From Firmicutes bacterium UBA1393 (GTDB lineage Bacteria > Bacillota > DTU025), in contig DBQN01000083.1 in NCBI GenBank assembly GCA_002305255.1, forward strand, positions 28,642 to 87,792: a DNA stretch of 59,151 nt, given 5' to 3'. The translations under genes were made by a program, and so were the position numbers. The notes below the pieces were generated by a model. That model did not search any database, was not told the DNA's origin, and saw only the letters and a program-made list of their open reading frames with translations. Shown here piece by piece: positions 34,429 through 34,823 of this stretch; position 1 is the stretch's first letter, and each line of letters opens with the position of its first letter.

Positions 34429-34788
34429 AAAAAACCCCTGACAGCTGAGCTGTCAGGGGCGAAAGACTCGCGGTACCACCCATTTGCGCGCACGCGACGC
34501 TAAGATGGGAATAGGAATGGTGGAGCTGAAGGGGATCGAACCCTCGACCTCTTGAATGCCATTCAAGCGCTCTCCCAGCTGAGCTACAGCCCCACATGTT
34601 GGCCACATGCGCCTCTCGGCAGTTAACGGAGCCACCCGTCACGGGCTACGCTGTTACGTTCACCCGTGCCGCTCAGAGGCGAGTTCCCGACCACCACGCC
34701 ACCGGGTTTCACCTGCCCCCGGCTCTCTTAGGGCCATCGCGGTCGCTACTGCTCCTCGTCACAGCGTTTTCCGATACGTTGTCAAGCA
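34429..34788 (-). promoter_or_regulatory. T-box leader (Leu, CUC specifier) of leuS, interrupted by a tRNA-Ala gene
   Basis: Stem I spans about 34765..34671, with AGAGAG (34728..34723), GGUGAAA (34713..34707) and the specifier GAA-CUC-G (CUC at 34683..34681). The T-box motif AAAUGGGUGGUACCGCGAG lies at 34485..34467. The antiterminator GGG[UGGUACC]GCGA..UCGC-CCC competes with the terminator CCCCUGACAGC-UCA-GCUGUCAGGGG followed by U6 (34459..34429). Confidence 0.8.
34518..34593 (-). tRNA. tRNA-Ala (anticodon GGC), CCA encoded
   Basis: The 76 nt sequence GGGGCTGTAGCTCAGCTGGGAGAGCGCTTGAATGGCATTCAAGAGGTCGAGGGTTCGATCCCCTTCAGCTCCACCA folds as a perfect cloverleaf. It has the G3:U70 identity pair, the anticodon loop AUGGCAU and a TTCGATC T-loop. 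Confidence 0.9.
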
Positions 34789-34794
34789 GGTTTC

Positions 34795-34823
34795 ATTATA
34801 CTTCGACCCCTGACAGGAGTCAA
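34795..34823 (-). promoter_or_regulatory. near-consensus sigma-A promoter driving the T-box leader / tRNA-Ala / leuS
   Basis: Minus strand reads TTGACT (34823..34818), a 17 nt spacer, then TATAAT (34800..34795). Confidence 0.7.

Follow-up and report, generated by a model that had tools for sequence, protein, structure and literature searches.

Transfer RNA (tRNA) genes can be co-transcribed with protein genes, as in the thrU–tyrU–glyT–thrT–tufB operon of Escherichia coli and in the tRNA punctuation model of mitochondria. Stem III of the T-box riboswitch has been recognized as a component of the sensing domain only recently, and the T-box discriminator motif is given as 5′-RRRxG-Stem III-AA-3′ in PMC7583486. 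Lineage-specific insertions into T-boxes are exemplified by stem Sa in the antiterminator of the staphylococcal glyS leader, as outlined in PMC4574755 and PMC9177973. Cleavage of regulatory leaders likewise has precedents, three of which are summarized in PMC7913692: the Bacillus subtilis thrS T-box leader is cut just upstream of its terminator, with a protective 5′ hairpin stabilizing the mRNA (citing Condon 1996); RNase P cleaves the pbuE adenine riboswitch (citing Seif & Altman 2008); and RNase III cleaves the Staphylococcus aureus met T-box. Here we report that, in a 59,151-nucleotide (nt) stretch of DNA from Firmicutes bacterium UBA1393 (hereafter referred to as the window), stem III of the T-box leader of leuS, the gene for leucine–tRNA ligase (LeuS or LeuRS), encloses a complete gene for tRNA-Ala(GGC), and that the same layout recurs at leuS in Bacillota, Chloroflexota and Armatimonadota.

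Architecture of the leuS leader

We analysed the window with the Rfam covariance models RF00230 (T-box) and RF00005 (tRNA), ARAGORN, promoter and terminator scans, and a profile search with TIGR00396. The T-box, the tRNA gene and leuS lie together on the minus strand, which also bears all other features of the window described below. A σ70-type promoter (34795..34823), in which TTGACT (34823..34818) and TATAAT (34800..34795) are separated by 17 nt, matches the consensus at 11 of 12 positions and is the sole promoter-like match in 34000..35400 in a scan for this type of consensus. Downstream of it lies a complete T-box leader (34452..34771) comprising stems I, II, IIA/B and III, the T-box sequence and the antiterminator. 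RF00230 matches this leader over its full length (model positions 1–219 of 219) at 109.0 bits (gathering score, 93; E = 3.4e-23), and the alignment contains a single insertion, of 111 nt with linkers included, in the loop of stem III.

In the RF00230 alignment, stem I (34671..34765; model positions 7–103) has the K-turn ends UGA...GAG, the AGAGAG bulge, the GGUGAAA distal loop and a specifier loop, where alignment and sequence place the leucine codon CUC (34681..34683) in the context GAA-CUC-G. Stem II (34668..34640), with GAA...AGUA motifs of the S-turn type, and the stem IIA/B region (34639..34624), with the F-box CCGUUA, together span model positions 106–146 (34624..34668), and their motifs are conserved in the 103-locus alignment described below. 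The 5′ strand of stem III (GCGCAUG, 34612..34606) directly follows an AGAG purine run, the two occupying 34606..34616, and the 3′ strand (CGUGCGC, 34494..34488) is followed by GC (34487..34486), which completes the segment 34486..34494, and by the conserved AA that flanks stem III (34485..34484) and lies within the T-box sequence part. The resulting series AGAG-GCGCAUG...CGUGCGC-GC-AA matches the discriminator motif.

The 7-base-pair (bp) helix GCGCAUG/CGUGCGC encloses a 76-nt tRNA-Ala(GGC) gene (34518..34593), which is found by both ARAGORN and RF00005 (64 bits against a threshold of 29; E = 1.3e-11) and combines G3:U70 and A73 with canonical D and T loops and a CCA encoded at 34520..34518. 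The tRNA is connected to stem III by a 12-nt linker on its 5′ side, which ends in U(−1), and by a 23-nt linker on its 3′ side.

The T-box sequence AAAUGGGUGGUACCGCGAG (34467..34485) contains a UGGU bulge (34478..34475), to which the A73-CCA terminus of tRNA-Leu(GAG) is complementary. This tRNA is predicted to be the effector for the CUC specifier, and ARAGORN places its gene at 54022..54106 of the same window. The terminator scan identified an intrinsic terminator (34428..34460) made up of a 12-bp hairpin (GCCCCUGACAGC / GCUGUCAGGGGU, 34460..34434) and a run of six U residues (U6). The 5′ strand of the terminator overlaps the 3′ strand of the antiterminator in a common segment, CGCCCC, and the two structures are mutually exclusive. 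The downstream gene, leuS (31892..34396; TIGR00396 at 1093 bits), agrees with the leucine specifier; its longest open reading frame (ORF) starts at GTG 34396, and a 100% identical database protein of 831 amino acids (aa) implies GTG 34387 as the start.

These results confirm, with one correction, a preliminary description of the window, which had been made from the letters alone and had proposed the promoter, the stem I elements, the T-box sequence with its antiterminator and U6 terminator, the perfect 76-nt tRNA-Ala cloverleaf with G3:U70 and CCA, and the match of the UGGU bulge to the acceptor end of a tRNA-Leu(GAG) encoded in the window. It had left the judgement on stem I and the tRNA to covariance models, and RF00230 and RF00005 each accept their element. 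It had also put the tRNA where stem III normally sits: the location in stem III holds, but stem III is not replaced, its 7-bp helix being retained around the tRNA.

Conservation across phyla

The closest LeuS relatives of the window come from uncultivated Clostridia and Bacillota. Three loci with a LeuS 68% identical to that of the window (L002, L003 and L004) have the same layout, each carrying tRNA-Ala(GGC) in stem III of a T-box that is full-length (106 and 96 bits); in L001, a relative whose LeuS is 78% identical, the contig starts inside the tRNA. For a broader survey, one genome per species was scanned with the pattern GGTTCRANNCC-N{30,60}-GGGTGGNACCGCG, that is, a tRNA T-arm followed by the T-box core. 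The scan yielded at least 120 loci, and the scan counts below refer to the matches listed.

In 103 of these at least 120 loci, from species-level genomes of Bacillota, Chloroflexota and Armatimonadota, the T-arm belongs to tRNA-Ala(GGC), the 3′ end of which is separated from the GGGUGG of the T-box (GGGUGGNACCGCG) by 15–46 nt. Three further loci (L038, L102 and L106) have the T-arm, the T-box core and LeuS, the 5′ part of the tRNA lying beyond the sequence examined. A LeuS homologue, 44–66% identical to that of the window, is encoded downstream on the same strand in every testable tRNA-bearing locus (the sequences of L094 and L113 end too soon). About 11 listed matches have neither a tRNA nor LeuS, a number near the approximately 16 matches estimated to arise by chance. 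As candidates for a T-box with a tRNA other than tRNA-Ala, we rejected L078 (tRNA-Arg, Slackia) and L112 (tRNA-Met, an Opitutaceae metagenome-assembled genome (MAG)), the sole listed matches of this sort, in which there is no Rfam T-box at E ≤ 0.001. Because the scan is limited to one T-arm/T-box spacing and to the matches listed, the actual distribution is wider, and further combinations of tRNA and T-box could exist.

The Bacillota carriers include Syntrophomonadaceae, Peptococcaceae, Thermacetogeniaceae, Symbiobacterium and Thermaerobacter, and the Chloroflexota carriers include Thermomicrobiales, Chloroflexia, Anaerolineae, Ktedonobacterales and Limnocylindria; Armatimonadota also carry the nested tRNA. 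The layout is present in the genome of an isolate, Desulfitispora alkaliphila DSM 22410, and Thermosyntropha lipolytica DSM 11003 has the T-arm, the T-box sequence and LeuS, with the 5′ part of the tRNA outside the DNA examined. Full-length RF00230 matches that span the tRNA exceed the gathering score in 8 of 20 sampled loci (94–133 bits), among them Symbiobacterium, Desulfitispora, Thermosyntropha, Pelotomaculum, Chloroflexia and Limnocylindria. Five more tested loci have such matches below the gathering score (67–92 bits, E ≤ 2e-12), for 13 in all. Four carriers that fall just short of it are Sphaerobacter and three MAGs, one of Thermacetogeniaceae, one of Armatimonadota and one labelled Actinomycetota. 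The E-values, together with an identical layout in more than 100 independent assemblies, rule out chance or an assembly artefact.

We aligned the 190 nt upstream of the tRNA from 103 leaders, namely 100 scan loci and L002–L004, with the window excluded. The specifier position is occupied by CUC in 101 of the 103, and the motifs of stems I and II are conserved. The preliminary description had considered that relatives might reveal stem I as a decayed remnant; they have instead an intact, conserved Leu(CUC) specifier domain.

Two contigs labelled as belonging to other groups, L010 (‘proteobacterium’) and L024 (‘Methylocystaceae’), carry the T-box/tRNA/leuS unit. The LeuS of L010 groups with Chloroflexota in a LeuS tree from which L024 was left out, and both contigs are probably mis-binned.

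Stem III is retained around the tRNA

The two flanks of the embedded tRNA pair to form a helix, and this helix covaries across loci. Cognate flanks have a mean duplex energy of −13.6 kcal/mol and non-cognate ones of −9.7 kcal/mol (Mann–Whitney p = 1e-12, for related sequences with kinship ignored). In a fixed register, with the helix beginning right after AGxG and stopping right before AA, at least 5 bp form in 68% of cognate and 19% of non-cognate pairs. There are 58 distinct flank helices, with several pair types at each position, such as GGUGGC/GCCACC, GAUAGA/UCUAUC and GACGAG/CUCGUC. The AA lies 5 nt ahead of GGGUGG in 93 of 105 loci, and the median linker between the 3′ end of the tRNA and stem III is about 12 nt. 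The helix bounded by AGxG and AA matches the motif published as 5′-RRRxG-Stem III-AA-3′. In 93 of 106 loci, the T-box is succeeded by a hairpin that resembles a terminator and has a U run.

Pairing in cis between the ACCA end of the embedded tRNA and the UGGU bulge was rejected as a general mechanism: no CCA is encoded in 30 of 107 loci, and the retained stem III puts the ACCA end on the far side of the helix. In five loci (L044, L080, L093, L107 and L118), the T-box bulge reads UGGC in place of UGGU, which would match a G73 discriminator base, as opposed to the A73 of the tRNA-Leu in the window.

Proposed order of events and possible roles of the tRNA

The interpretation that we favour, and consider fairly probable, is that the leader is a working leucine-specific (CUC) transcriptional T-box that controls leuS and bears, in the loop at the apex of stem III, a working gene for tRNA-Ala(GGC), the regulatory decision being taken before the tRNA is excised. 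One promoter would transcribe the leader, tRNA-Ala and leuS. In the nascent RNA, stems I, II and IIA/B would capture tRNA-Leu(GAG), and the tRNA-Ala segment would fold autonomously and thereby bring both strands of stem III together. Along with its flanking purines and the T-box bulge, that stem would make up the usual discriminator domain; about 90 nt after the tRNA, this domain would read the charging state of tRNA-Leu and select either antiterminator or terminator. Mature tRNA-Ala would afterwards be excised from terminated and read-through RNAs by RNase P and 3′ processing. Since the tRNA lies upstream of the terminator, it would be contained in every transcript, terminated or read-through, and, if excised from each of them, would make the abundant leader double as a tRNA precursor. 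Read-through leuS mRNA would lose its specifier domain, and a processed 5′ end just upstream of the antiterminator/terminator hairpin is plausible by analogy with the thrS leader of B. subtilis, which is cut at the corresponding place and whose mRNA the hairpin protects (PMC7913692, citing Condon 1996). The preliminary description had offered three options, namely a decision before processing, a structural insert, and a promoter that mainly makes tRNA-Ala with leuS served by read-through; as far as sequence can tell, these are compatible with one another and with the evidence.

Several points weigh against this interpretation. The start site, RNase P cleavage, aminoacylation and antitermination are all predicted from sequence, and the promoter scans covered σ70-type consensus sites only. 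An RNase P cut made while the polymerase was still short of the T-box sequence would detach the specifier domain and abolish regulation; that the decision comes first is a claim based on general kinetics. The embedded tRNA-Ala might be redundant with another tRNA-Ala(GGC) gene. A tRNA that is only a passenger, moreover, leaves unexplained both the choice of this tRNA and this T-box and their long retention together, and it is an assumption, with a rough neighbour-joining tree as its backing, that one ancient event was inherited vertically.

In an alternative that we regard as possible but rather unlikely, the tRNA is an integral part of the mechanism; in its favour, one and the same tRNA has kept its place across very large evolutionary distances. 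Excision by RNase P and 3′ maturation would here be obligatory: it would detach stem I together with tRNA-Leu, reset the switch and release the effector, and would leave the leuS mRNA capped by a 5′-proximal hairpin that sets its stability. LeuRS output would in this way depend on tRNA-processing capacity, the extra 90–110 nt could serve as a timer by giving tRNA-Leu longer to bind, and the arrangement would predate the split of Bacillota and Chloroflexota. The tight fit of the tRNA against stem III (the short median 3′ linker, and a gap to GGGUGG of down to 15 nt) and the enrichment of U(−1) described below are in keeping with such a role, as is the precedent of cleavage in the thrS T-box leader and in riboswitch leaders cut by RNase P, according to PMC7913692. 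Against it, the effect of cleavage is a prediction, and leuS T-boxes without a tRNA exist in Thermosediminibacter oceani (178 nt) and in a Limnochordales MAG (313 nt), both nested among carriers in the LeuS tree, so the tRNA is dispensable for a leuS T-box.

The LeuS tree, a rough neighbour-joining tree, broadly tracks taxonomy, with a Bacillota group and a Chloroflexota/Armatimonadota group. For this reason one ancient insertion followed by losses fits the distribution better than repeated gains, although the preference is weak. To our knowledge, no tRNA gene is annotated in the leuS leader of B. subtilis. We conclude that the nested design is a conserved leuS T-box architecture in several phyla and probably an ancient one.

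The embedded tRNA has the features of a genuine tRNA

The embedded segment behaves as a genuine tRNA. In an alignment of 70 distinct embedded sequences, all 1470 of 1470 cells at the 21 cloverleaf pairs are standard pairs, and 15 of the 21 pairs show compensatory changes, values reached by none of 500 shuffles. G1–G3, U70, A73 and G34-G35-C36 are invariant in this alignment, and G3:U70, A73 and the anticodon GGC are constant in every one of the 107 embedded copies. Of these, 77 encode CCA, and the CCA-less remainder is mostly from Chloroflexota. In 65 of 104 loci, G1 is preceded by U, compared with a background of 18% U; RNase P prefers U at position −1, and the enrichment fits this preference. 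Positions −3 to −1 follow a Y-R-U pattern: of the 104 loci, 93 have a pyrimidine (C or U) at −3, 84 have a purine (A or G) at −2 and 65, as just stated, have U at −1. This exceeds what the preference of RNase P for U(−1) would lead one to expect. A metagenome scan for the core of the window tRNA was followed by the finding of the identical 73-nt sequence in an unrelated AT-rich contig (L155), where it stands alone as a gene and is driven by a promoter of its own; the context of a matching sequence is thus no guide to one particular genome.

These features speak to a second alternative, that the tRNA-shaped segment is a structural module only, a folding clamp or an extension of stem III that is neither matured nor used in translation. 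The segment does occupy the exact place of a hairpin loop, and a tRNA fold, in which the 5′ and 3′ ends come together, would favour the formation of stem III. Such a module, however, would need neither an invariant GGC anticodon nor G3:U70, A73, encoded CCA and canonical D and T loops, and it would not be expected to keep these identity features while its stems change by compensation; the free-standing copy of the same sequence and a U(−1) that suits RNase P processing also argue for a tRNA in its own right. We therefore hold a purely structural role to be very unlikely.

The embedded gene has also been recognized by a mobile element. In L131, a 1.56-kb element that encodes a tyrosine recombinase is integrated in the embedded tRNA gene and has, as is usual, duplicated the 3′ part of the tRNA (region 2960..4960, minus strand), with the same junctions in L174 and L169. 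The Phage_integrase-family protein is encoded within the element at 3876..4523 on the plus strand, and TTGACT...GTATAAT faces outwards near the right end of the element. The complete tRNA (4723..4648) keeps its link to stem I, with a terminator-like hairpin after it, whereas the duplicated 3′ part (about 50 nt, approximately 3148..3097) is joined to the T-box sequence and leuS; by this layout of the junctions the riboswitch is split. Judged from the junction sequences, the element used the embedded tRNA gene as its attachment site.

Probable dependence of the tRNA on the T-box promoter

Promoter-like sites were mapped in 93 loci relative to the start of the tRNA. Sixty-seven lie at −225..−151, just upstream of stem I, and 60 of those at −225..−176; within the 150 nt before the tRNA, only 2 σ70-type sites occur across the 93 loci. 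The preliminary description had named an independent promoter, together with a complete specifier domain between the tRNA and the T-box motif, as a finding that would count against nesting; in the window, no promoter-like site lies between stem I and the tRNA. Together, the window scan and the 93-locus scan argue against an internal tRNA promoter of the σ70 type, and the clustering of sites upstream of stem I suggests that the tRNA depends on the T-box promoter. That the elements are independent, the tRNA having its own promoter or stem I being a relic so that the nesting is only apparent, is highly improbable: nothing speaks for it beyond the fact that promoters of other than σ70 type would escape a consensus scan, and the distribution of promoter-like sites, the conservation of stem I, stem II and the CUC specifier, and the T-box scores over the full model all speak against it.

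Genomic context and variants of the layout

On the minus strand of the window (28511..35993), the gene order is yqeK, rsfS, the T-box with tRNA-Ala, leuS, comEA and comEC, and L004 has the same order. In Thermanaeromonas (L125), the gap between rsfS and leuS is only 30 nt, with neither a T-box nor a tRNA in it.

Some carriers have an additional gene between the T-box and leuS. An ORF of about 560 aa stands in this position in L105 (3124..4830, Pelotomaculum-type) and L068 (1589..3274, a Bacillota MAG). In Pelotomaculum thermopropionicum (L126, 1..1391), a gene with an AMP-binding Pfam domain lies directly upstream of leuS, with no T-box directly upstream of leuS. We dropped L126 as a case without a T-box, the T-box and tRNA of L105 and L068 preceding a gene in the equivalent position; the T-box of L126 may lie further upstream. 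In five loci, Armatimonadota-type and others (L067, L037, L103, L066 and L056), an ORF of 306–323 aa comes between the tRNA-bearing T-box and leuS. By eye, this ORF resembles a branched-chain amino-acid aminotransferase (HYGSSVFEGIRAY...), which suggests a T-box[tRNA]–ilvE–leuS operon.

The leader itself also varies. In a Thermacetogeniaceae MAG (L019, 442..855, minus strand), the T-box measures 414 nt, with about 110 extra nt between the specifier region and the tRNA, a second large insertion. Ten loci of Anaerolineae type (L029, L041, L044, L048, L051, L059, L063, L071, L075 and L110) have a second tRNA gene, for tRNA-Ala(CGC), just before stem I and some 300 nt upstream of the embedded gene, so that the T-box stands between two alanine tRNA genes. 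In an Anaerolineae contig (L017), about 4 kb separate the tRNA-bearing T-box from an RNase P RNA gene (3051..3420; RF00010 at 282 bits), a proximity that is probably a coincidence.

Discussion

Our analysis identifies a new arrangement, in which a non-cognate tRNA gene, predicted from its sequence features to be functional, is nested in stem III of a T-box, tRNA-Ala(GGC) in the leader of leuS, across several phyla. On all features that sequence can address, the element belongs to RF00230 and to RF00005 alike. The preliminary description knew of no T-box with an embedded tRNA gene, which agrees with our search: no description of the arrangement was found in the full-text literature, the TBDB paper, Wels 2008 and reviews, the main comparative T-box surveys (Vitreschak 2008 and Gutierrez-Preciado 2009) being outside its scope. 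We consider an earlier mention in the literature rather improbable, though well within reason.

The nested tRNA shows how large a cargo the discriminator domain can tolerate. A terminated leader, which is normally discarded, would gain a second product, and the design would have a built-in race between a co-transcriptional decision and processing by RNase P. The arrangement also matters for annotation, in which one of two overlapping predictions, T-box or tRNA, may be dropped, and for mobile elements, in that tRNA-targeting integrases can split the riboswitch of an essential gene, as in L131.

Compared with canonical class I transcriptional T-boxes (RF00230), such as the B. subtilis tyrS, glyQS and leuS leaders, the leader described here has all of the defining parts in the same order. 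The loop of stem III, however, comprises a few nucleotides in the canonical T-box, whereas here it accommodates an entire tRNA gene specific for another amino acid, 111 nt with linkers. The leader is also a predicted tRNA precursor, unlike the canonical one, and maturation of the tRNA would be expected to cut it at two places.

Like stem Sa of the staphylococcal glyS leader, the nested tRNA is an extra structured element in the 3′ sensing half of a T-box and is conserved in its lineages. Stem Sa, as characterized in the papers cited above, is a simple hairpin without a function of its own and is restricted to one genus, whereas the insertion described here is a tRNA gene, lies in stem III and occurs in several phyla. 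A similar relationship holds for the leaders that are cleaved. With the 3′ end of the tRNA 15–46 nt before the T-box sequence, tRNA 3′ processing would give the same cut geometry as in the thrS leader; yet the cuts in the thrS, pbuE and met leaders fall in ordinary or transient structures and release no functional RNA, whereas the cuts predicted here would release a usable tRNA.

The leuS leader also resembles operons in which tRNAs and mRNAs are joined, in its predicted single promoter and in the predicted excision of the tRNA by RNase P and 3′ nucleases that leaves an mRNA. In those operons, the tRNAs stand between or before the genes, whereas here the tRNA lies inside a folded regulatory RNA, the two halves of which must cooperate before they are cut apart.

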